Shown in pieces: positions 3,774-32,000 of a stretch of 32,000 nucleotides of DNA. Source of the DNA: Candidatus Saccharimonadota bacterium (GTDB lineage Bacteria; Patescibacteriota; Gracilibacteria; Absconditabacterales; Absconditicoccaceae). The translations under genes and the position numbers were made by a program. Under the pieces are notes generated by a model that saw nothing but the letters and a program-made list of their open reading frames with translations, ran no database searches and was not told where the DNA came from. The stretch is taken from the NCBI GenBank assembly GCA_965231145.1, contig OZ246420.1, positions 660,001 to 692,000 on the forward strand. Reading direction: 5' to 3'. Numbering within the stretch: position 1 is the stretch's first letter; every line of letters starts with the position of its first letter.

Positions 3774-4328
3774 TTACTCAATTCTCTGCAGATTATAAAA
3801 CTGCTGTAAAAAGCCATCAACATTTCGGATCCAATCATTGGCATTGAAATTATTGAGCTGCATGTGAGCAAAGAGCCGAAAGCCGGGATGTTGGACGTCA
3901 AGAAATGCCGTAGCAGGAAGCGAACCTGCGGCAAAAGGTATAATAATAAATGCGCCAGATGAAATTTTTGCTGCGCCAGATGAAAGAAGCGCCGTAGTAT
4001 TTCCACCATGCGTTCGCAATATGTTTCCATCTTTCATGTGCAATGTTGCGCCCGTTGTTCCATTTCATGTAAAATAGATAATATCTGTATGCCCGCTTGC
4101 AGCAGCGAGAGCACCTGTATATTTTGCGAAGTCGATCTGATATGCATCTGCAATATTTTGCACAGTCTGTGTCACATAGAGAATCTCTGCATTGAGTTTT
4201 TTCTCATTACCAAGCCTTGCAGTAATTTGTGTAATGCTCACATATGCTTTAAAAATGAGCGTGAACAAAATCCCCGCTATAACGATAGCGATAAGGATCT
4301 CTATTAACGTAAAGGCTTTTTTTCTCAT
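3774..4328 (-). CDS. type IV pilin-like protein (prepilin-type N-terminal methylation domain)
   Basis: N-terminus MRKKAFTLIEILIAIVIAGIL. The TGA at 4065..4067 fuses track ORFs 4065..4388 and 3774..4043, giving 184 aa. Confidence 0.75.
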
Positions 4329-4408
4329 ACTATAACTTAATTTTACATGTTGAAGGTTAAAGGAGCAATACAATATTATACTTAACATTTAACATTTCAA
4401 ATTGAGCA

Positions 4409-5032
4409 TTATTTTCTGATGGCTCCTATGAAGCTTTCAAGGGTCACTTCTCCTTTGATAGATCATTTCTGATAGAGAACATGTGAAACGACCTTCAGTA
4501 ACTTTGTCGTATCAAGCTTTACGCCCGACTGATAGACTGGTTCAAAGTGTATGTATCTTGCAAAAAATGATGGAGTTCATGCGTCGTGCATCAGCACACC
4601 GCCGTTGTAAAGACCTCATGTATAATTGAGCAATCTATTACCACTCCATGTGTCCATGAAAGTAGCACCAGTAGTCGTTGCAGCAATAAAGATCTTATGT
4701 GCCTTACTCATCGCAACGCGAAAACGAGCTCATTCAGTAAATGAACCTCCACAGACTTCCCCATTGTACAGCATACCGTTTTCTAAGGCAGCGATAGCGT
4801 CGGGCTTCAGAAATGCACATTGCCGATCGACTCCTCTTTCAAGATTGGTATCACGTATATTGAAAATCAAATCAATTCCCTCCTTCGCAAGCGACTGAGC
4901 CTGCGTTCTTACCTTCATCGTATCGATGATAGAAATATTTGTCGTAATCACTCTTATGACGGCTAAAATACCGACAGCAAAAACCATCAAGGCAATCAAT
5001 ACTTCGAGTAACGTCATTCAACGTTTGAACAT
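4409..5032 (-). CDS. type IV pilin-like protein
   Basis: Leader MFKR(TGA)MTLLEVLIALMVFAVGIL. The cleavage-site Gly at -1 is the TGA at 5018..5020. Four further in-frame TGA codons extend track ORF 4730..5017 to a TAA at 4409 (207 aa). Confidence 0.8.
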
Positions 5033-5114
5033 ATTTTCTTATATTTTATTAAAAGATACAGATACGAGATACAGATGCTTTTTGTATCAGTATCAGTCAA
5101 CAGTATCTTGTTTA

Positions 5115-8439: not shown

Positions 8440-8445
8440 TTTCTT

Positions 8446-9597
8446 ATGAATAAAGCTTCGCTATCCGCAGATCATAATAGTATCAATAATCAATTATCTG
8501 CAGACACTCAGATTCAACATGCAATTGCATGCATTTTCAGTTCTGATAAAGCCCGCAATGAGGCTTTTTTCAAAAATAACGTATTGAAACTTCCGGAAGC
8601 GAAAGTTATTTTTTTAGAAAATGATTATGACAGACTTATTCCTTCTTTTGTCTGGGATAGTCATAGTCATCACAATGCAAGCGCTGGATATATTGAAAAA
8701 GATGGACTTTGGTGATTTATCGATCAAGATGGAAATGAGATAACCCCACCAAGATATACAGAGCGTCCTTTTTATCACATCACTGCAGATGTGCAAGACG
8801 CCGCTACGGGAAAATATGGTACTGTAGATATTAAGGGACAGACATACAATGAGTGTAAATATGAGTACATTACGAATAGTGACTATAATGTCGCTAAGTT
8901 AGATGGTAAGCGAGGTATTGTCGGTGCACATGATAAAGAGCTACTACCTTTTATCTACGATGATATTTACATAACCCAAGCACACGAAGAACATAAGGAT
9001 GAATTAGCAATTGCTCTCGTGAGAGAAGGAAATAATATCTATTGTATTGATGCGATAACGAAACAACCCATAGCAGTTCCTGAAAAGCGAAAGACGCATG
9101 AAAGGCAGTTTAAGTGAGCTGACAAGAAGTATGGCTTCATCAGTAAGCAAGGATATATTATACCTGCTGAGTTTGATGAACTTTATACATCTGCTAAAGA
9201 GAACAAATATCTTGTCTATCAAAACGATCTACGAAAAAGACTCACGTTAGATGCTATGGGAAATATGCATCTGGATATACTAGATGATGCTATGCAAGCG
9301 AGCTGTCATGAGCGTTATCATCATAAGCAAGAAAGCACAAGTAGTATCCTAGACGAGAAGAATGATTCCACAATAGAATGGTCTATGCCACAAGACCACG
9401 CCGCTGAACTGGAAAATTATAGATGAATAAAAACCGATGATAAGCGAAGCATTGTGAATGAAGGAACAAATGAAATAATATTGCCTGCAAAATTTGATGA
9501 GATCCATCTGCATTATGGCTCTCGCAAAGCATGGTGATGGATAAAACAATGGAATGCTCTTGTAGAAGTTTCATTACCCAAAAAAGCCATGCCATAG
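8446..9597 (+). CDS. WG-repeat protein
   Basis: Four in-frame TGA codons join 8446..8715, 8791..9117 and downstream sequence into 383 aa ending at TAG 9595..9597. Repeats: KDGLW(TGA)FIDQDGNEITPPRY, GK(CGA)GIVGAHDKELLPFIYDDI, KKYGFISKQGYIIPAEFDEL, DK(CGA)SIVNEGTNEIILPAKFDEI. Confidence 0.8.
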
Positions 9598-12989: not shown

Positions 12990-13919
12990 TTATATTTGTA
13001 TTCCACCTAACGTATATATTACATACACCACATACAGCAAAATAAACACTATTCCCTGCCACCTTTGTAAGACTTCTTTTTTCCCAAATATAAATGCAAG
13101 CCAAAGTAATAAAGTCACGCCCACACAGATCAGGATATCAATCCATCCATGGTAAGGAATTGAAAGAGGGACAATAAAGCCTGTAATAGCAAGTATAACA
13201 ACGATATTTAATACATTTGAACCAACTATATTTCCAATAGCTATATTATTATTGCCTTTCCATGCTGCGACAACAGAAGTAACAAGCTCTGGCAAAGATG
13301 TACCTACTGCAACTACAGTCAATCAAATCACTCTTTCTGTCATACCAAACAATTGTGCCAATGCTATAGCTCCATCAACAACCCGTTTACCACCTACAAC
13401 CAGCAATGCAATTCCCGCCAATATATATAAGATTGTTTTCTTTGTTCCTATAGAGGAAACATGCTGATCTTCAACATTTCCTGCTCTAAAAATATAATAG
13501 ATAAATATAATAAGAAACAAAACCAAAACGCCTGCGTCTGCACGACTTAATAGCCCGTCATAAGTCAACAATGCCAATCACACAACTATCATCAAAGCAA
13601 GAGGAATGTCTCATACTCTTGTCTGACGATTAATAACCAAGGGAATAATAACTGATGTTATACCTAGTATAAGCAAAATATTTGCAATATTACTTCCTAT
13701 AATATTTCATACAGCCATATCTGTAACTCCATGGGTTGCAGCAAGTACATTTACGACAAGTTCAGGCAGTGAAGTACCCAATGCCACTAATGTTAACCCT
13801 ATAATCATGGGCGAAATACGAATTTTATTTGCCAATGAAGAGGCACCATCGACGAGCCAATCTGCACCCTTTACCAAAAATATAAAACCAATAATGAATA
13901 ATATATATACCATACTCAC
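12990..13919 (-). CDS. CaCA-family Na+/Ca2+ exchanger (YrbG-like)
   Basis: The three track fragments plus the sequence between them join into 309 aa. Two alpha-repeats GTSLPEL. (TGA)NIIGSNI with the TGA at 13707..13709, and ERVI(TGA)LTVVAVGTSLPE. Confidence 0.85.
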
Positions 13920-13948
13920 TCTATAAGAATAAAAACGTCTGAGAGTAA

Positions 13949-14512
13949 TTATTTTGTATATCTAAAGCAAGAAACAAGATGATCATTAACTACCCCTATG
14001 GCTTGTAGGTGTGCATACACGGTTGTAGAGCCAAGAAATGAGAATCCGCGTTTTTTCATGTCTTTTGCTATGGCATCGGAAAGTTCACGAGTTGGTTTAT
14101 AGTCGCTCATGTCTTTAATTTTATGATCAATAACCTCACCATTGGTAAAGGACCAAATATATGCATCGAATGAGCCAAACTCTTTTTGTACCTCCAGAAA
14201 TGCTTTTGCATTTTTGACTGCAGCATGGAGTTTTGCTCTGTTACGAATGATGCCCGCATCATGCATCAGTTCTTCTATTTTTGCTTCATCGAACTTCGCA
14301 ACTTTTTTCGCGTCAAATGACGCGAAAGCCTTACGATAATTTTCACGCCTGCGCAGTATGGTTAGCCAAGAGAGTCCTGCCTGCATGGTTTCGAGTAATA
14401 AAAATTCGAAATGTTTCTTTTCATCGTGCATGGGCACTCCCCGCTCTTCATCGTGATAACGGATATACAAATCGTCTTTTAGACATCGAGAACAACGGCT
14501 CACTCAGTTCAT
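13949..14512 (-). CDS. tag: DNA-3-methyladenine glycosylase I
   Basis: 187 aa, aligning without gaps to E. coli Tag: RC..-x-...LYI.YHD.E-x-GVP, QAGLSW, IIRNR, NDH..C. The two x positions are CGA (14486..14488) and CGG (14441..14443), opposite Tag W6 and W21. Confidence 0.85.
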
Positions 14513-14640
14513 AAAGTAGAAAGTTAAAGGTTTATAAAATAGATAGAGATTCTAGACAGAGATATAGGTCTTTCCTCTGTCTCTATCTCGCATCTCTATC
14601 CGATAAATATAGTCTATCAGAATATATATTTCTTTATTAA

Positions 14641-20803: not shown

Positions 20804-21646
20804 CTAAAACTTATCCTGTCTTTCATTTTCATTAAGCGTCTTATTATTATCATCATACCGCTCGTTGTATCCATTCGAATTCCTTCAAAGAATAATATTT
20901 GATGCTCAGCTTGGAGACTTGAATGTATAGTTTTGAGTAAACTCAAATGATTGATCATCTATCATTTTAATAACTCACAAATCAAATAGTTTTGTTTGCT
21001 GATTTTGCACATAAGGAATAGAAGCTTTAGGAATATCTTTTCTTCACTTAGATCCAGCAAGAACTACTACTCATTCTGCAGAATATATTCATTTTCCCGA
21101 TGCTGACGGTCAAGTGCAATGATATATTTTTAGCTGCTTCGTATCAACATCCGGCGTCTTGAGAATAGGATATCCTACGCTTGAAATAAGTAAATCTATG
21201 TCTTCTATAAAATCATTTAACACCGATTCTTTATGCAAAGATAGTTTTTTATAAGTAGGTTCTGTTTTATTCATGAGCTGATATCTTTTTGCTTCTTTTG
21301 CCTTAAGTATAGTTTTATATTCTAGATAAGTCACATCTCCAAGATCTAGTGTATTATTATCATATACAAATCATATAGCCACATCTCGATAATCCTTCTT
21401 CATAACATGATCTTTCCACCTTTTAGCAAGATTATCTGTTTGTCCAATGTATACAATTTCGTCAGCATTTTCATTAGATCCAAACAAAAAGTATAATCCG
21501 GTATGCGATGCTCATTCTACTTCAGCAAACTCAGACAATTTTTTTCTTGGCACGACAAAACACTTAATAGATTTTCCTGGCATATCCAGTATCTTTATTC
21601 AGGAATATGTTCCATCAATGAGAAATGTGATCAGTGTTTTTGCCAT
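20804..21646 (-). CDS. GIY-YIG nuclease family protein with DUF4357-like C-terminal domain
   Basis: 280 aa after reading at least 12 in-frame TGA codons. GLYFLFG....EIVYIGQTDNLAKRW.DH (GIY-YIG). C-terminal GS..R......SPSGASNIILGRNSNGY.E.Y...NKTL matches my recollection of DUF4357. Confidence 0.7.
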
Positions 21647-22439: not shown

Positions 22440-22784
22440 TTAAATTTTCTTGTGCTTATCAACTCCAAATACCATATTGACCAAAGCAAGCACGATGGCA
22501 AAGATAGCTGTAGTCAGAAATCCACCTGTCTCAAATCCATCTACCAAACTATCAGCAAGCATAATCATCAGCACAGTGATGATAAATGATACCAGCCCAA
22601 GTGTGAGGATGTTAATGGGGAAAGTAAGTACACGTAAGATAGTTCCGATGATACCATTGACTATTGCAAGTACTACGGCAACTACGATAGCGGTCCATAA
22701 ACTGTCAATTACAACCCCAGGCACAATATATGCTGCTACTGCGATCGCTATAGCACTTACTAAGATTCTTAATATTACTGTCAT
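22440..22784 (-). CDS. phage holin family IV-like / YvlD (DUF360) membrane protein
   Basis: 114 aa with 4 TM helices. The Gly/Ile/Val-rich pattern (IVPGV.I.S...A.....VLA.VN..I..IL..LT.P...LTLGL) is typical of PF04020. Confidence 0.6.
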   Translation of the reverse strand: MTVILRILVSAIAIAVAAYIVPGVVIDSLWTAIVVAVVLAIVNGIIGTILRVLTFPINILTLGLVSFIITVLMIMLADSLVDGFETGGFLTTAIFAIVLALVNMVFGVDKHKKI

Positions 22785-22855
22785 GGTTTTTTTAGGTTAG
22801 GAGATAAAACAACTCTACCTTACAACGAAATAACAAAAAAACAAGAGCATTGTAC

Positions 22856-23176
22856 TTACTCCTGTCTTCTTCGACCAAATTTTTTCATGTCAACAGTATC
22901 ATTTATCACAGGAATTTTTTCTTTTTCAAGCAGCATTTTATGTCTTAGTCCCCTTTCTCCAAGTTTCAGTGTCGGTAAATATCATTCTTTATTGATAACA
23001 CGCCACCATGGATAACGCACCTGTTCTTCTGCATTCATGCCACTTAAAATCTTTCAAACCATCCGGCCAGATGTTTTGATGCCATAGTCGACATCTAAAA
23101 GCTCCGCAACATGACCATAGGTCGTCACACGGCCATATGGTATAGATGTCATGATTTCCATGATCTCTTGTTTCAT
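22856..23176 (-). CDS. MGMT-family DNA-binding protein, alkyltransferase-like (no active-site Cys)
   Basis: Not in the track (2 TGA codons). 106 aa: IPYGRVTTYGHVA......MV-G-KIL......YPWWRVINKE-G. PWWRV replaces the PCHRV active site. Confidence 0.65.
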
Positions 23177-23205
23177 CTTACTTCTATTAACTAAAAACAT
23201 TGCAA

Positions 23206-23261
23206 CTAGCATCTAGCAAGTAGCATGCTATATGCCAATTGCTATTTGCTACCTGCTGATT
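23206..23261. repeat. Degenerate heptamer array (8 units)
   Basis: ctagcat ctagcaa gtagcat gctatat gccaatt gctattt gctacct gctgatt. It overlaps the last codons of uvrC. Confidence 0.7.
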
Positions 23262-26776: not shown

Positions 26777-29761
26777 CTAAATCTTTGGAAACACATCTAT
26801 AACAAAGTACCTTCTGAGTGCTGCATTAAAAGCATTATAATCCAGTTTTCCGTCTTTCACAACTTTGTCATATGGTATCTGGATATTTTTATACATATCC
26901 TGGTTCACACCGTCGTTATCAAGAGTCAGCTGGATGTATTTCGTTTCAACCTTTGTTGCTGGATCTACTCTTCTTACGATTGCTGCATCTTCGATCTCCA
27001 TACGGTTACTAGATGTGCCAAAATAGTATTCTGAGTTAATAAAAAATGTTCTTAATTTATCAATTTTTGCTTTTAACTTTGCATCTTTCCTATCTTCTTC
27101 TGTAAAGATTCTATTTATTATAATGCTCTTATTGATAAAGTTAGCATCTATAAGCTGCTGATCTGCGTTCTCTTCTGCTGTTTTTTTAGCGAGCTCTGGA
27201 TTTGCTGGTGCTGGCTTTCCTTTGGCTGTATCTGTCTTAGGGGCTGGAACCTTTGGCTTAACGCCTGGAACTGCATTATTCTTTTTTGCTTCTTCAGCCT
27301 TTTTCTTATCAGCTTCTGCCTTCACAGGCGCCATAGCTTTTCTAAGATATGAAAGCATATCATCACTATCTTGTCTGACATCTATAACATAAGAAGAATT
27401 TCCATCATTGCGTTTTATTATCCCATTTGCTTGGTCAAGAAGTATACTTTCTTCTTTCATAGGATATCCTTCTTTTTTCAGCTGAGCCGTAACGCGGGTT
27501 ACTTTATCTACAGTAATTTTATTCATATACTCATTGAGTCTTCAAGCTGTCCAGACTGAATTCTGACTTAGCTTTACTTGATACGGCAGAAGTGCTTCAA
27601 AAGTCTTCTGTGGTATAAATTTCTCTGTAACATCCGCAACATTTTTATTGAGATAGTTCAATAGCGCTTGCTTATTTTTATTATTCTTTTCTCCTTTCAG
27701 TGTTGGAAAGTTAGTATAGTCTGTTACTAAATCCTTAGTCATCCCAAGACTACCCGCTCCTCTTTGCTCTATTTCACCTGTAGAAGAAAGCTCAAAACGC
27801 GTTTCTGTTTTGTCTTCTGGTCTATAGAGATCTTTTATTCTATTGATAAGATTTGCTACTCTTATAGCCTCTCCCTGGTCGGCAAAAGTTATGTTGAGAC
27901 CATCAACTTTCTTTTCTTTCATATCAAGCGCTGTTTCATTTCCATAAGAGGAAAGCTTCACCTTACTCGGATCATTATAATAAAGTATATTCATCTTGAA
28001 AGTTTTCGTATCAATCTTTGTCCCTGCAAATGCCTTATTGATATGATAACCCATGTATTTAGACAACTGCTTATCTATGTCTAAGACAAGGTTTGTCAAT
28101 TTTCCATCGCTCCAAGCGAAACGAACGACGCCAGAAACAACATCGTTATTGAGCGTTGTGACTAATGCGTTTTTATATTTTGCCAATTTTTCATAGTTTT
28201 CCTGAAATTTCTTAGCACCTTCAGGAGTCCCAGTAGGTTCAGCAAATGACATGGTCGTAATTTCTGCTCTCGCGCTTTCAAAAGCTTTCTCTCTTAACAG
28301 AGCGAATCTAGAATTCTCCTTTGGCATATCTGATTGTTCTACATTTATAAGTGTTTTTAACACCTCTTTTTCTATCAGAATACACTTATCAACTACATTA
28401 TACTTTGGATCATTGATATATGACTCAAAAAGGTCAGCAACTTTGTCATACTTTTTATCAAGCGCTGTTACCGGAACATCCGCTTTTGTTTCTGGTGTAG
28501 GCGCGGGAATTGGCGCTGTTTCAGTTGATTTAGAAGTAGTTACTTCTTTCTTTTTACTTGCTTTTGGCTTTGTAGCAAAATTATCAGGATTTGTTCCATC
28601 ATCAGCCCATTCATAATCAGGATCTACGTTAGGCACATTATTGATAATCTTTACATGATGTTTCGCAGGATCTTTCATAAGCTCCTCTTTTGTAACAACT
28701 GGTATCGTAGGAGTTACTTCCTTTGCTTTTTTTGTCGCTTCTTTTTTAGGTGTTGCTGGTTTTTCTGTCTTAGCTGCAGTAGTTTTCTTTACTTCTTTCT
28801 TTGGCTCCTGTTTTGTATCTGTATCTGCCTCCGTATCAGTATCTGTTTCCATAAGCTTCGTCGCATAGTTATCTGTTGCTTTTTCGTCTACCCAGTCGTA
28901 TCCATCTTCAGGTTGTATCTTAAGATGATTAACGTCAGAATCAAAGTCTGCTAGTGCTTCTTCACGCGTTATTTCTGTCTCATTTTCTGCTTCTTCTCCA
29001 ATTTTCTTTACTGCAACATTATCTGGATTTGAAGCATCAACAAACTCATACCCATCTTGTGGCACTAAACGTAAGTGATTTTTCTCCATAGACTCAACAC
29101 TAGCGAGCGCCTCTTCAGCAGAAAGTGTTTTTACTTCATCACTCTCAGCAGCATTCTCTGTTTTATTATTAGTATCTGATTCTGTGGTATTTGTTGCTTT
29201 TACCGCGACAATATTATTTTTATCCCAACTTGTATCATCAAGTGCAGAAATAATCTTCGTAAGTGTCTCTTGTCCTGCCCATCCATCAACAGCGATCTGA
29301 TCATCTGCATGAGCAGTATTCCATGCATTTTGAAATTCTTGTATTCTCTTATTTGTATCTTTACTACCATAGATACCATCTATACCTTGCTCAAATTTAC
29401 ATCCAAGCTTAGCCAATGCAAGCTGCATATTAAATACTAATCCAGCACCCATAGCACTATACACATCCATAAATGCTATATGGTCATCTGGGTTTGCACT
29501 GTTTTTTGCAGCTTCAAACTTACCGACAGCTGACTGCAAAACCATCTTCACGTGTTCTACCGTGAGATCTTTTTCCAGCATAGCTTTCAGAGTCTCGCCC
29601 GAAAGATTGTTCATTACCTCTTTTTTAAGGTCCTGAAGCTCTCCTTTCGTTTCATAGATCTCCTTATAGCTATCCTTGATTTTATTTTCGAGCCAATTGA
29701 TCTCTCCGATTTTCTTCGAGATCTGATTGTCACCGATTTCGTTTTTGATGAGTTCTGCCAT
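26777..29761 (-). CDS. large PG-binding-domain protein with novel ~45-aa repeats (994 aa)
   Basis: Track ORFs 27542..29761 and 26777..27526 share one frame and are joined by the TGA at 27542..27544. Helical N-terminal domain, PG_binding_1-like segment (MQLALAKLG....GIDGIYG..T...IQEFQ......DGWAGQETL), 3 HL-x-P-x-GY-(E/D)-W-x-D...DN-x-A-x-K repeats, then a long unrecognised C-terminal part. An internal restart at 27526 cannot be excluded. Confidence 0.6.
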
Positions 29762-29785
29762 GGTAGTACTCTAAAGATGTATAAA
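29222..29785 (-). repeat. Paralogous block 1 (leader plus N-terminal ~180 codons)
   Basis: About 80% nucleotide identity by eye to 30890..31147 over the first ~230 nt of the CDS plus ~25 nt of 5' leader (..TATACATCT....ACTACCATG). Protein-level similarity continues through the PG-binding segment. Confidence 0.7.
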
Positions 29786-29800
29786 TTTTACATAAACGTA

Positions 29801-31123
29801 TTATGAAATAGTTTTTCTTCTTTGAAGTGACGTTGCATAATTATCTTCACTACTCTTATCTAACCAATCATATCCTCTCTCTGGCTTGATATCTACTGGG
29901 TAATTTCCTTCCTTCAGATATCTCAATACATCTGCATGACTTATCATAGGAGCATCTTCAACCATAGTTCCTGTTTTTCTCACAGCAAGATTATCAGGAT
30001 AGTTCCCAGCCCACTCGTAACCCTCCTGAGGAACAAAACGTAAGTGATTTCTTTCCATCGTTTCTCTATCTTTTATGGCATCATTATAACTCAACGTCAT
30101 GCCTTCAAGTGGTTCTTCTGGTCCATACACATTTTGTGCAGGCATTGGCTTCTCTTCTACTACTGGGAAATCACCTTCTACTGCTTTGATTTTACTCTTT
30201 CCATCAGCAGATGTTATGGTTCCACTATTATTCTCATCTTCTACATCCGTATTATTTTCTGGCTGAGCTCATCCTTCGCGCAACTTCGTTGCGTAATTTT
30301 CACTATCCTGCCCATCTGCCCATTCGTAATTTTTTACAGGCTTAAGACCAAGATGGTATTTATCCATATTTGGATCTTTAAAGAAATCTTCATAACTCAT
30401 AAAAGGCGTATTCATAAGTCTCTTTCCTTTTACCTTCATAGCAATATTTGCCGGATCTGTAGGATCCACAAACTCATACCCATCTTGTGGCATAAACTCG
30501 AGATGATTATCTATCATCGCTTGTCTATCTTTAATAGCCTCTTGTGCTGTGACTTTAGGCACTTCTGTTACGACATTCTCTCCTTCTTGTCTTTCTACTT
30601 TTCTCCCACTCATGCGAGATACATCCCACTTTGGATCATCAAGTGCAGCTACAATTCTGACGAGAGTAGCTTCTACGTCTGATGTGTCGATAATAGTATC
30701 TTCAGGATGAGTAGTGTTCCATACTTTCTGAAATTCTTGTACTCTTTTTCCTGTATCTGATGTACCATACATACCATCGATACCCTTATCAAAGTGACCT
30801 CCAAGCTTAGCAAGAGCGAGCTGCATGTTGAATGTAATACCCGCATCTAGATTACTATAGGTAGCTTGCTTTATAGATGGATCATCAATTCCTGCCTTAA
30901 GGACATTTTTTACATGATCAACCGTAAGCTCTTTTTCAAGAAGCTCTTTCAACGTCTTACCCGAAAGATTATTCTTTATTTCCTTTTGCAGATCCTGCAA
31001 TTCTCCTTTCGTCTCATAGATTTCCTTATAACTATCTTTAATTTTACTTTCGAGTGAATTGATATCTCCGATTTTTGTAGAGATCGTGTTATCACCGATT
31101 TCATTTTTGATAAGTTCAGTCAT
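29801..31123 (-). CDS. paralogous PG-binding-domain protein with 4 copies of the same repeat (440 aa)
   Basis: Track ORFs 30269..31123 and 29801..30145 are joined in frame by the TGA at 30269..30271. The first ~170 aa are paralogous to the 994-aa protein. TAA stop at 29801. Confidence 0.6.
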
Positions 31124-31147
31124 GGTAGTGATATAAGATGTATAAAG
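30623..31147 (-). repeat. Paralogous block 2 (leader plus N-terminal ~167 codons)
   Basis: Counterpart of 29222..29785. Confidence 0.7.
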
Positions 31148-31150
31148 TGG

Positions 31151-31894
31151 TTATGCGTTTGCTCAGGGATAGAGTTCAAACTTTCTCTGAAATGCTTTCT
31201 GTCTTTTTTCTAAGTTATTTGCTACGGCATCGACTCCATCTTGCAAAGATGCATATTTCCTTGTACTTCCGTCGTCGGTATTACCGACATTTCCAGGATT
31301 ATTGGTTCGTACGGCTTTACCCTTCGTGGCCATCGAGCTATCAAGTGCAATAATGGCAGCAACAGCATATGGATCCACATTATGTTTCTTTGCGGCGGTT
31401 TCTATCATCTGAGTATTAAGTGGCGTGCCTTTAAATCATTTGATGAACTTATTGAGTCATTTTTGTTTCGCAGTTTCATGGATTCATTTTACTTTTGTTC
31501 CATATTTGTCTCATGTAGAGTACGCTCATACAAAGAACTTCTTTCACTGGAAGTGTCATGAATAAAGAACTTGCAGATAGTCAGAGCTGTTTGCTATTCC
31601 CTGTGGATAGAGATACTCATACTTATAGGGTCATCTGTAAGCAGGCTGCGGTGGTGTTTCTATTTTTGGAGCAGCTTTTGCTGCCTGCTTCTCCGGCCCG
31701 CCAGATCAAAAAAATGATTTGAATGCGTTTCCCAGTATATTTGTAAAGTTGGTCACAGTTGCTTTTATCTGATCAATAAATTGCTGCAGTGAATTAAGCT
31801 CACCACGGCTGCCTTTGAGTACTTTGTCTATTTCCTGTTGTTTCTGTTCTTCTTTTGAAAGAGGCTGTTTCTCAGGAGAGTTTTTTGGAGCCAT
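31151..31894 (-). CDS. hypothetical protein with C-terminal lysozyme/lytic-transglycosylase-like segment
   Basis: Eleven in-frame TGA codons join 31706..31894 and 31163..31408 into 247 aa. The C-terminal block HNVDPYAVAAIIALDS....G......NNPGNVG......Y.S...G resembles SLT-like murein hydrolases, but with DS where those have ES. This is recalled from memory of the family and is weak. Confidence 0.35.
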
Positions 31895-32000
31895 ACAACA
31901 CCATGCACAAAATAAAGTATCTCCAGTATATGGGCTGTTTACCTCAGGAGCAAAAATCTTCGGGCATGTATCATTATAGAAGAGATATTATATTTGACAT

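Follow-up and report, generated by a model that had tools for sequence, protein, structure and literature searches.

A conserved locus for a lysozyme-like protein and two putative wall-anchored repeat proteins in a UGA-recoded Absconditabacteria-type bacterium

We analysed a 32-kb stretch of contig OZ246420.1 (the window, in which position 1 is the first letter) from an Absconditabacteria-type bacterium. At one end of the window lie three consecutive genes on the minus strand, here called A, B and C. A encodes a small protein with a lysozyme-like C-terminal domain, and B and C encode larger proteins that share a helical N-terminal domain (the header), a segment resembling the peptidoglycan-binding domain PG_binding_1 and a tandem repeat of about 45 amino acids (aa). 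Homologous proteins are labelled P0001 and onwards and homologous genomic loci L001–L011, of which L001 comes from the same genome as the window. We propose that the three genes form a conserved module that would combine wall lysis with wall-anchored surface proteins.

Gene structure and reassigned UGA codons

Under translation table 11 the minus strand of 26777–31987 breaks into fragments: 26777–27541 and 27542–29770 from C, 29801–30268 and 30269–31150 from B, and nothing but fragments from A. When TAA and TAG are the only stops, the same region holds three consecutive open reading frames (ORFs) separated by gaps of 27 nucleotides (nt; A–B) and 39 nt (B–C). This is the three-gene architecture of the original prediction, in which each gene became a single ORF only if TGA was read through, and the ORFs fell at the same coordinates. 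In-frame TGA codons number 82 over the genes of the window. In the window's SufB, a TGA aligns with a glycine of Escherichia coli SufB; the TGA codons of A correspond to GGN in the L004 ortholog at five of seven aligned sites; and the TGA at codon 285 of B is GGT in the L006 ortholog. The sequence 3′ of each TGA is kept in frame in the orthologs of the A, B and C loci, and read-through of C is supported by the C-terminal domain downstream of its TGA (codon 740), which by eye seems to be kept in the L003 and L006 orthologs.

These alignments place the window in a genetic code 25 lineage, in which TGA encodes glycine at conserved glycine positions. Gene callers that use table 11 do cut these genes (in P0001 the C protein is cut short at 739 aa, and the calls for A are pieces of 62 and 81 aa), but the idea that the ORFs end at their internal UGA codons, which would make the long proteins artefacts or pseudogenes and had been raised with the original prediction, has a negligible probability: the match of TGA to a conserved glycine in SufB and to GGN in orthologs of A and B excludes termination there, and both the in-frame conservation downstream and the abundance of in-frame TGA across the window argue the same way.

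The published code of the Absconditabacterales (PMC13092985) also reads CGA and CGG as tryptophan, and the alignments of CGG codons agree with it. The CGG at codon 62 of SufB aligns with tryptophan, and CGG in relatives aligns with TGG of B and C at four conserved sites. This second reassignment hardly matters for A, B and C, which contain no CGG and a single CGA (codon 196 of A, AGA for arginine in the L004 ortholog); of the recoding originally advised, the UGA part therefore holds and the CGA/CGG part is of little consequence here. Read as tryptophan, codon 196 of A (31307–31309) would adjoin the NNPGN motif, at a position where P0006 has lysine. Elsewhere in the window the CGA and CGG sites give mixed signals on recoding. 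Judged by eye, a CGA in the ORF at 8440–9597 (plus strand; ‘K[CGA]GIV’) stands where other ‘WG’-type repeats use TGG (‘LWGFID’). A CGG falls in what we take, by eye, to be the ‘EWG’ of a Tag-like glycosylase (13949–14551, minus strand), and the CGG at codon 50 of an MGMT/ATL-like ORF (22856–23212, minus strand) lies where, again by eye, we presume a conserved arginine finger. Codon style also differs sharply between the adjoining genes: TGA supplies 10 of the 23 glycine codons in A but 1 of 30 in B and 1 of 40 in C, and TGG occurs five times in B, eight times in C and never in A, which lacks CGG as well.

Domains of the three proteins

The C-terminal part of A points to a muralytic enzyme. Residues 163–236 matched PF01832 (Glucosaminidase) at 27.1–28.5 bits (E 2.7e-6 to 7.3e-6), below the cut-off of 30.2 bits, and all four members of the family (A, the A-like protein of L004, P0005 and P0006) matched it at E ≤ 1; the last three are the only homologs of A that were found. 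Searched against PDB, a profile of these four sequences aligned ‘AIIALDSS’ of A with ‘IMQTESSF’ of MltC and ‘IISRESRAG’ of a goose-type lysozyme (E about 0.1). The Asp185 column is invariant in the four-sequence alignment and stands opposite the glutamate of ‘TESS’ in MltC and ‘RESR’ in goose lysozyme; glutamate at this position is the catalytic general acid of lysozyme-like enzymes. This weak but consistent evidence suggests a murein-hydrolase-like domain of the lysozyme superfamily, in keeping with the original assignment. A resembles GH73 enzymes (PF01832; FlgJ, AcmA and LytB type) and the wider lysozyme-like superfamily (SLT/GH23 and goose lysozyme) in the match over its C-terminal ~85 aa and in the alignment of the helix bearing the acidic residue, and bona fide SLT-type domains occupy the same gene position in orthologous loci. 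Unlike GH73 enzymes, it stays below the Pfam cut-off and has an invariant aspartate, a short domain, a lineage-specific N-terminal module and no signal peptide; the N-module is too weakly hydrophobic to be a signal peptide or transmembrane segment.

B and C open with closely related headers, identical at 60 of 77 residues and, at the DNA level, over 80% of the first 150 nt and 77% of 231 nt. Together with some 20 of 24 bases common to the two leaders, this agrees with the original description of an N-terminal domain about 80% identical in DNA with its leader. The codon differences between the two headers (28 synonymous versus 17 non-synonymous) suggest that both paralogs are under purifying selection. 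AlphaFold 2 (AF2) predicted long helices for the header of B at residues 13–52, 55–65 and 68–79, with low confidence (predicted local distance difference test (pLDDT) 38–68). Searched against Pfam at E ≤ 1, residues 1–80 of B and C gave no LXG, WXG100 or other known secretion domain, only chance coiled-coil matches.

Word-indexed protein searches returned four matches for C, two for A and one for the repeat profile, and an exhaustive profile search with hidden Markov models (HMMs) over 1.84 billion protein representatives widened the families to 87 matches. The header is carried by 28 of these. Where the protein is full-length, the header begins no later than about residue 21 and is followed by PG_binding_1; no hydrophobic N-terminus precedes it among the 28 cluster representatives, and the parts downstream differ widely. 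Many of these relatives are rich in tryptophan where glycine is expected and so come from genomes with UGA as glycine that were translated with the wrong table. Scans of genome contigs and of metagenome contigs with the header alignment found one locus each. By eye, some distant header proteins (P0027, P0039, P0057 and P0029) contain an HExxH (‘HELRHAEFE’) or a calpain-like ‘GNCYLVAALRSL’ motif, in regions with no Pfam match.

The segment behind the header shares with PG_binding_1 proteins the signature L..LG...G.DG.YG..T...V..FQ ... DG.aG..T and is predicted to form three helices (residues 94–106, 124–138 and 150–162 in the AF2 model of B 1–284; pLDDT about 68–85). C scored 20.4 bits against PF01471, below the cut-off of 23 bits, and B gave no match. 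The assignment, proposed originally for both proteins, rests on header-sharing relatives that can be aligned across the segment and pass the cut-off (P0032, 51.5 bits; P0033, 36.4; P0057, 28.8; P0027, 25.3; P0039, 24.9); in B itself Pfam leaves the domain undetected. The best PDB match of the segment, obtained with the family profile, was the corresponding region of 4nso_A (‘Effector protein’; E 0.004). PG_binding_1 occurs in spore-cortex and other wall hydrolases and in phage endolysins with an N-terminal peptidoglycan-binding domain. Unlike in these proteins, the domain of B and C always follows an N-terminal helical domain of ~80 aa, has no catalytic fusion partner and is partly degenerate in B.

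The seven repeat copies, four in B and three in C, align well. An HMM built solely from unrelated proteins of other bacteria recovered exactly four copies in B (whole-protein E 1e-13) and three in C (2.8e-10), where they had first been listed. With the same HMM, 1000 shuffles gave a best E of 1.4, and because the whole-protein E-values lie far below this the repeat is not a chance pattern. The third copy in C is the weakest (domain i-E 1.9) and is nearest to the single copy in the L002 and L003 orthologs. A Foldseek search of the whole B 1–284 model against PDB, which the low-confidence N-domain dominated, gave insignificant helical-bundle matches only (best E 0.9), and for this reason the repeat pair was modelled again alone. 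AF2 predicted this pair (B 186–284, from a 13-row alignment) with a pLDDT of 92.4 and a predicted template modelling score (pTM) of 0.76; each unit would have a pair of short helices and, after them, three short strands, and the longer B model was confident here as well. Against PDB and BFVD, Foldseek found no fold match for the pair (best E 3.4 and 0.5, respectively), which is weak negative evidence because small two-unit models are hard for this method. No family corresponding to the repeat was found in Pfam (B and C, E ≤ 1), NCBIfam (B) or PHROGs, and LysM, SH3b, CW_binding_1/2, ChW, GW, SPOR, SLH and MORN were likewise unmatched (Pfam at E ≤ 1 for B and C, NCBIfam for B). The repeat that the original prediction could not recognise is therefore missing from these collections too, even with a confident structural model.

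Its relatives lie further afield. The exhaustive search identified five proteins of other bacteria (P0040, P0041, P0052, P0066 and P0086) with three to seven tandem copies of ‘GL(I/V)...DG.L.PA.GYEWV.P.D..N..V(K/R).K’ at a period of 32–33 residues. By hhalign this repeat of about 33 aa matched that of B and C with a probability of 98.4% (E 4.6e-15) over 26 columns, which comprise the core P..GYEW.D...P.N.A.K, and an HMM made from the 33-aa repeats by themselves picks up all seven copies of B and C. The homologous 26-residue core thus occurs on a strict 32–33-aa period in those proteins, whereas the repeat of B and C has an added helical segment and a period of ~45–50 aa. From this comparison the ~45-aa module is a lineage-specific elaboration of a wider, undescribed short repeat. 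The original failure to recognise the repeat thus fits its absence from curated families, and the HMM search recommended at the outset adds that it also has homologs outside this lineage. The 33-aa repeat proteins are themselves unannotated, with no repeat family in Pfam or NCBIfam, and some show weak, sub-threshold matches to peptidases (M48/M78) or PDZ. All four full-length ones have hydrophobic N-termini that resemble signal peptides, which favours an extracytoplasmic role of the repeat.

There is also a functional analogy to the choline-binding CW_binding_1, GW and ChW repeats, the aromatic-rich wall-binding repeats of Gram-positive surface proteins, which are likewise small tandem units with aromatic and acidic residues, vary in copy number and occur in wall proteins near lysins. 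Unlike them, the repeat of B and C is ~45 aa long with an added helical part, has a predicted fold of helices and three strands, and shows no sequence match to them.

B has no C-terminal domain beyond its repeats. In C, the header, PG_binding_1 segment and three repeats are followed by linkers rich in proline, threonine and lysine, a middle domain and a C-terminal domain. The middle domain, with its ANLINRIK motif, is present in three copies in P0004 (1215 aa; BLASTP E 2e-10), a protein with two apparent hydrophobic segments by eye. Neither the middle nor the C-terminal domain of C had a Pfam match, and residues ~426–994 gave nothing at E ≤ 1 against PDB.

Hydropathy shows neither a signal peptide nor a transmembrane segment in A, B and C. 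Their maximum Kyte–Doolittle values (19 residues) are 1.05–1.24, compared with 2.2–3.3 in two exported proteins of the window, which bears out the original remark that classical signal peptides are missing.

Table 1. Features of the A–B–C locus; coordinates are positions in the window and residues are numbered in the respective protein.
Feature	Coordinates	Strand	Residues	Remarks
Promoter-like TTGCTC-N17-TATACT	31925..31953	-		~30 nt upstream of the ATG of A; consensus match
Gene A	31151..31894	-	247 aa	10 in-frame TGA; N-terminal helical module, linker, C-terminal lysozyme-superfamily domain (putative)
N-terminal module of A	31700..31852	-	~15-65	EIDKV..GEL..L.QF.D.IK.T.TNF...LG....FK.FF.GG
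Lysozyme-like (Glucosaminidase/GH73-like) domain of A	31175..31432	-	~155-240	invariant motif D185-S186 ... T.NPGNVGNTDDGS
Asp185 codon GAT of A	31340..31342	-	185	position of the catalytic Glu in lysozyme-like enzymes
Conserved leader of B	31124..31146	-		TTTATACATC..ACTACC directly before ATG
Gene B	29801..31123	-	440 aa	1 TGA (codon 285); helical N-domain, degenerate PG_binding_1-like domain, 2 x 2 repeats
B helical N-domain	30884..31123	-	1-80	78% identical to its C counterpart
B PG_binding_1-like domain	30629..30841	-	~95-165	second DG.xG motif lost; aligns with C, P0002 and P0003
B repeat 1	30419..30556	-	190-235	HMM core 210-233; pLDDT above 90
B repeat 2	30272..30397	-	243-284	HMM core 260-284
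B repeat 3	29966..30091	-	345-386	core 364-384; homologous to P0011 and P0025
B repeat 4	29819..29944	-	394-435	core 414-429
Conserved leader of C	29762..29785	-		TTTATACATC..ACTACC directly before ATG
Gene C	26777..29761	-	994 aa	1 TGA (codon 740)
C helical N-domain	29522..29761	-	1-80	
C PG_binding_1 domain	29222..29449	-	~105-180	PF01471, 20.4 bits
C repeat 1	28991..29128	-	212-257	core 232-255
C repeat 2	28850..28972	-	264-304	core 281-302
C repeat 3	28556..28705	-	353-402	core 383-400; longer loop
C middle domain	27662..28108	-	~552-700	motif IRVANLINRIK; in L004 and L006 orthologs
C C-terminal domain	26780..27154	-	~870-994	judged conserved by eye with the L003 and L006 C-termini

Conserved position and changing composition

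The gene order pnp (minus strand), A-like, B/C-like, prmC (minus strand), uvrC recurs in L001, L006, L003 and L002. In L004 (‘Patescibacteria group bacterium’) pnp is followed by an A-like and a C-like gene, where the contig ends; L002 and L005 seem to come from a single organism. The original prediction had looked to pili or secretion genes beyond the right edge of the window. What lies upstream of A is pnp instead, as L001 reveals, and across five genomes no secretion-system gene stands beside the locus, which is flanked by pnp and by prmC/uvrC.

L006 is the closer relative, with counterparts A′, B′ (492 aa, five repeats) and C′ (three repeats and MORN-like repeats). In L003, L002 and L004 one long gene is orthologous to C, and B is an older paralog, which L006 has as well. 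The number of repeat copies per locus varies from none in L004 and one each in L002 and L003 to seven in the window and eight in L006; with the linkers rich in proline, threonine and lysine, such variation is what one would expect if these regions bind at an exposed surface. Judging from these orthologs, the central region of the C family turns over quickly. The C ortholog of L002 (10001–12679) has another internal repeat, ‘D(I/V)PGSGAW.KKH’, four times, with CGG for tryptophan in one copy; that of L004 (7953–11027) has no GYEW repeat, but about 16 perfect copies of VKTPAVDT and MORN-like repeats. L002 also has an extra gene of 375 aa (13066–14193) with a PG_binding_3-like segment (22.7 bits) and, by eye, a C-terminus of the transglycosylase type.

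The lytic domain of the A-like proteins varies in kind. It is glucosaminidase-like in the window and L004 and of the SLT family in L002 (31.1 bits, above the cut-off); that of L003 is a transglycosylase domain which matched phrog_196 (1.3e-23; phage baseplate-hub/transglycosylase families), and that of L006 gave a weak SLT match. The N-module of A is retained in L006, L003 and L002 despite the differing catalytic domains and is far more divergent in L004. The association with a lysin is limited to this close clade, because the distant header genes (L007, L009 and L011) lie between a gene for a PKD protein of ~1415 aa and groEL/ES, a synteny conserved in three genomes, with a coiled-coil protein also among the neighbours and no lysin.

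Upstream of A, the TTGCTC and TATACT hexamers (Table 1) recur with the same 17-nt spacing before the A-like genes of L006 and L003. A generic scan of the region for promoters and terminators was overall not above chance, so the promoter proposal rests on this conservation across genomes. The leaders of B and C have counterparts before the B/C-like genes of L006 (TTTATAC[AT]T-N8-10-ACTAC[CT]ATG), with weaker versions in L003 and L004; the motif was not found before other genes of the window, and it contains no Shine–Dalgarno sequence. It could serve as a translation-initiation context or, alternatively, as the −10 element of an internal promoter whose leader would be very short. The single operon of the original prediction is plausible from the small gaps, which hold no terminator, and is qualified by the −10-like motif before B and before C, either of which could be an internal promoter.

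The rest of the window holds UvrC, PrmC, SufB, BipA, an S41 protease and other housekeeping genes, with an array of nine tRNA genes at 270–1547 on the minus strand (Glu, Asp, Thr, Val, Asn, Leu, Gln(CTG), Met and Gln(TTG)). Two adjoining genes for type IV pilin-like proteins with N_methyl motifs (3774–4388 and 4409–5038, minus strand; 28.4 and 23.8 bits) lie ~22 kb from the locus. Beside sufB, the minus-strand ORF at 20804–21646 encodes a 280-aa protein with GIY-YIG and DUF4357 domains and 10 in-frame TGA codons.

A putative wall-directed module and its possible roles

We consider it moderately probable that the locus is a conserved module of wall lysis and wall-anchored surface proteins in this UGA-recoded, Absconditabacteria-type bacterium. 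A would belong to the lysozyme superfamily as a small muralytic enzyme, GH73- or glucosaminidase-like, with aspartate at the general-acid position. B and C would be non-catalytic, modular wall-associated proteins, fixed to peptidoglycan by PG_binding_1, in which the coiled-coil-like header probably serves oligomerization or partner binding. Their tandem repeats, with conserved tyrosine or tryptophan, aspartate and asparagine, are probably multivalent units for binding a glycan or protein ligand, and in C the proline-, threonine- and lysine-rich spacers and two further domains would extend away from the wall. On this proposal all three proteins would be located outside the cytoplasm, A would cooperate with B and C, and export would take a route other than Sec.

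Several points weigh against it. A, B and C have neither a signal peptide nor a transmembrane segment, although other exported proteins of the window do, which leaves their extracellular location putative. The aspartate in place of glutamate and the sub-cut-off Pfam score mean that A may have weak activity or serve for binding alone, and B has lost part of the PG_binding_1 signature, with no Pfam match. The repeat has no fold match, so a binding role is suggested by its composition and context, and co-transcription of A, B and C is putative.

A different reading of the same proteins, which we regard as possible although unlikely, casts A, B and C as substrates, either effectors or adhesins, that a dedicated export pathway other than Sec would deliver in epibiotic predation. 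The helical N-modules would then be tags for export or chaperone binding, by analogy with the LXG toxins of the type VII secretion system (T7SS), while PG_binding_1 and the repeats would target the envelope of the prey and A would breach its wall. Cultured Absconditabacteria are predatory, and the proposal has been made that their wall hydrolases act against the wall of the host (PMC8080830). Wall-directed domains without a Sec signal, the strictly N-terminal header with variable C-terminal parts behind it in 28 clusters, the N-module that A-like proteins keep while their lytic domains are swapped, and the ‘Effector protein’ chain as best PDB match of the peptidoglycan-binding segment would all suit such a toolkit. 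The LXG toxins likewise combine an N-terminal helical domain with variable downstream parts and lack a signal peptide. Unlike theirs, however, the header of B and C has no LXG or WXG100 match, is coupled to a peptidoglycan-binding domain and has no T7SS genes nearby: none for this machinery (EssC-type ATPase and others) was found in the 32-kb window or in about 17 kb of L001. Pfam offered no other secretion domain and the five genomes no adjoining secretion-system gene; the known prey are Gram-negative, so that their peptidoglycan lies beneath an outer membrane; and a PG_binding_1 domain near the N-terminus fits anchoring to the cell's own wall equally well.

A bolder proposal, which we hold to be quite unlikely, takes the ~80-aa header and the N-module of A-like proteins as the recognition tag of an undescribed Sec-independent route for export or surface assembly in UGA-recoded bacteria from the candidate phyla radiation (CPR; Absconditabacteria and Gracilibacteria). 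By this route a family of polymorphic proteins that target peptidoglycan, together with interchangeable lysins, would reach the interface of predator and prey, with the ‘GYEW’ repeat recognizing the prey envelope.

It is rather improbable that the genes constitute a housekeeping autolysin system acting on the cell's own wall, for the separation of daughter cells or to make space for surface structures, in which the control or placement of the lysin at the division site would fall to the coiled-coil header. Architectures that join coiled coils to wall hydrolases are established for division autolysins. The conserved position among housekeeping genes and the presence of a muralytic gene in every closely related locus are what such a system would show, and the lineage makes its own peptidoglycan (PMC8080830). 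Against this, the fast turnover of repeat number and central regions and the swapping of catalytic domains are atypical of core division enzymes, no division gene adjoins the locus, and the distant header proteins sit beside the giant PKD surface protein rather than a lysin.

A prophage or phage origin, as a cassette for lysis or as a tail-lysin cassette with an endolysin and tail or tape-measure proteins, is very improbable: peptidoglycan-binding and lytic domains without a signal peptide are typical of phage lysins, the A-like lytic domain of L003 resembles phage baseplate-hub/transglycosylase PHROGs and an ORF matching PF04020 (‘phage holin 4_2’) is situated 4 kb downstream, but A, B and C have no PHROG match at E ≤ 0.01, profiles of the header plus repeat and of the repeat alone found no relatives in 2.9 million IMG/VR contigs, BFVD holds no fold match, the window contains no capsid, portal, terminase or integrase gene, and the synteny from pnp to prmC is free of insertions even between genomes with a protein identity of only about 50%. 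The phage tail or tape-measure match that the original prediction had considered as an alternative was thus found neither in these databases nor among the neighbours; the locus appears to be a conserved chromosomal one and not a mobile element, and nothing points to a prophage. The PF04020 ORF itself (22440–22796, minus strand) encodes a 114-aa membrane protein with a full-length Phage_holin_4_2 match (97.6 bits) and has the same relative position in L001 and L006. Holin-assisted export of A, B and C through this protein was considered and set aside: prmC, uvrC and other genes intervene, and no specific link was found.

The module proposed here, a wall hydrolase with peptidoglycan-binding surface proteins, is of a known kind; its repeat and helical header are undescribed. 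Papers on Vampirococcus (PMC8080830) and on Gracilibacteria (PMC11452946) report generic wall hydrolases and a holin and do not describe the A/B/C family. Part of the reason that such proteins are hidden from databases is visible at this locus, where gene calling with table 11 fragments them; billions of predicted proteins yielded only a handful of homologs, and several of these are truncated or have tryptophan for glycine. With its confident predicted fold and its absence from curated libraries, the repeat is a candidate for inclusion in domain databases. The lineage-specific header, which carries no signal, poses the concrete question of the route by which wall-directed proteins leave the cells of CPR bacteria. 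Contact with cultured Absconditabacteria kills other bacteria; the locus, with a lysin that differs in its catalytic domain from one relative to the next and two putative peptidoglycan-binding proteins, offers a compact, conserved set of candidate genes for this killing.

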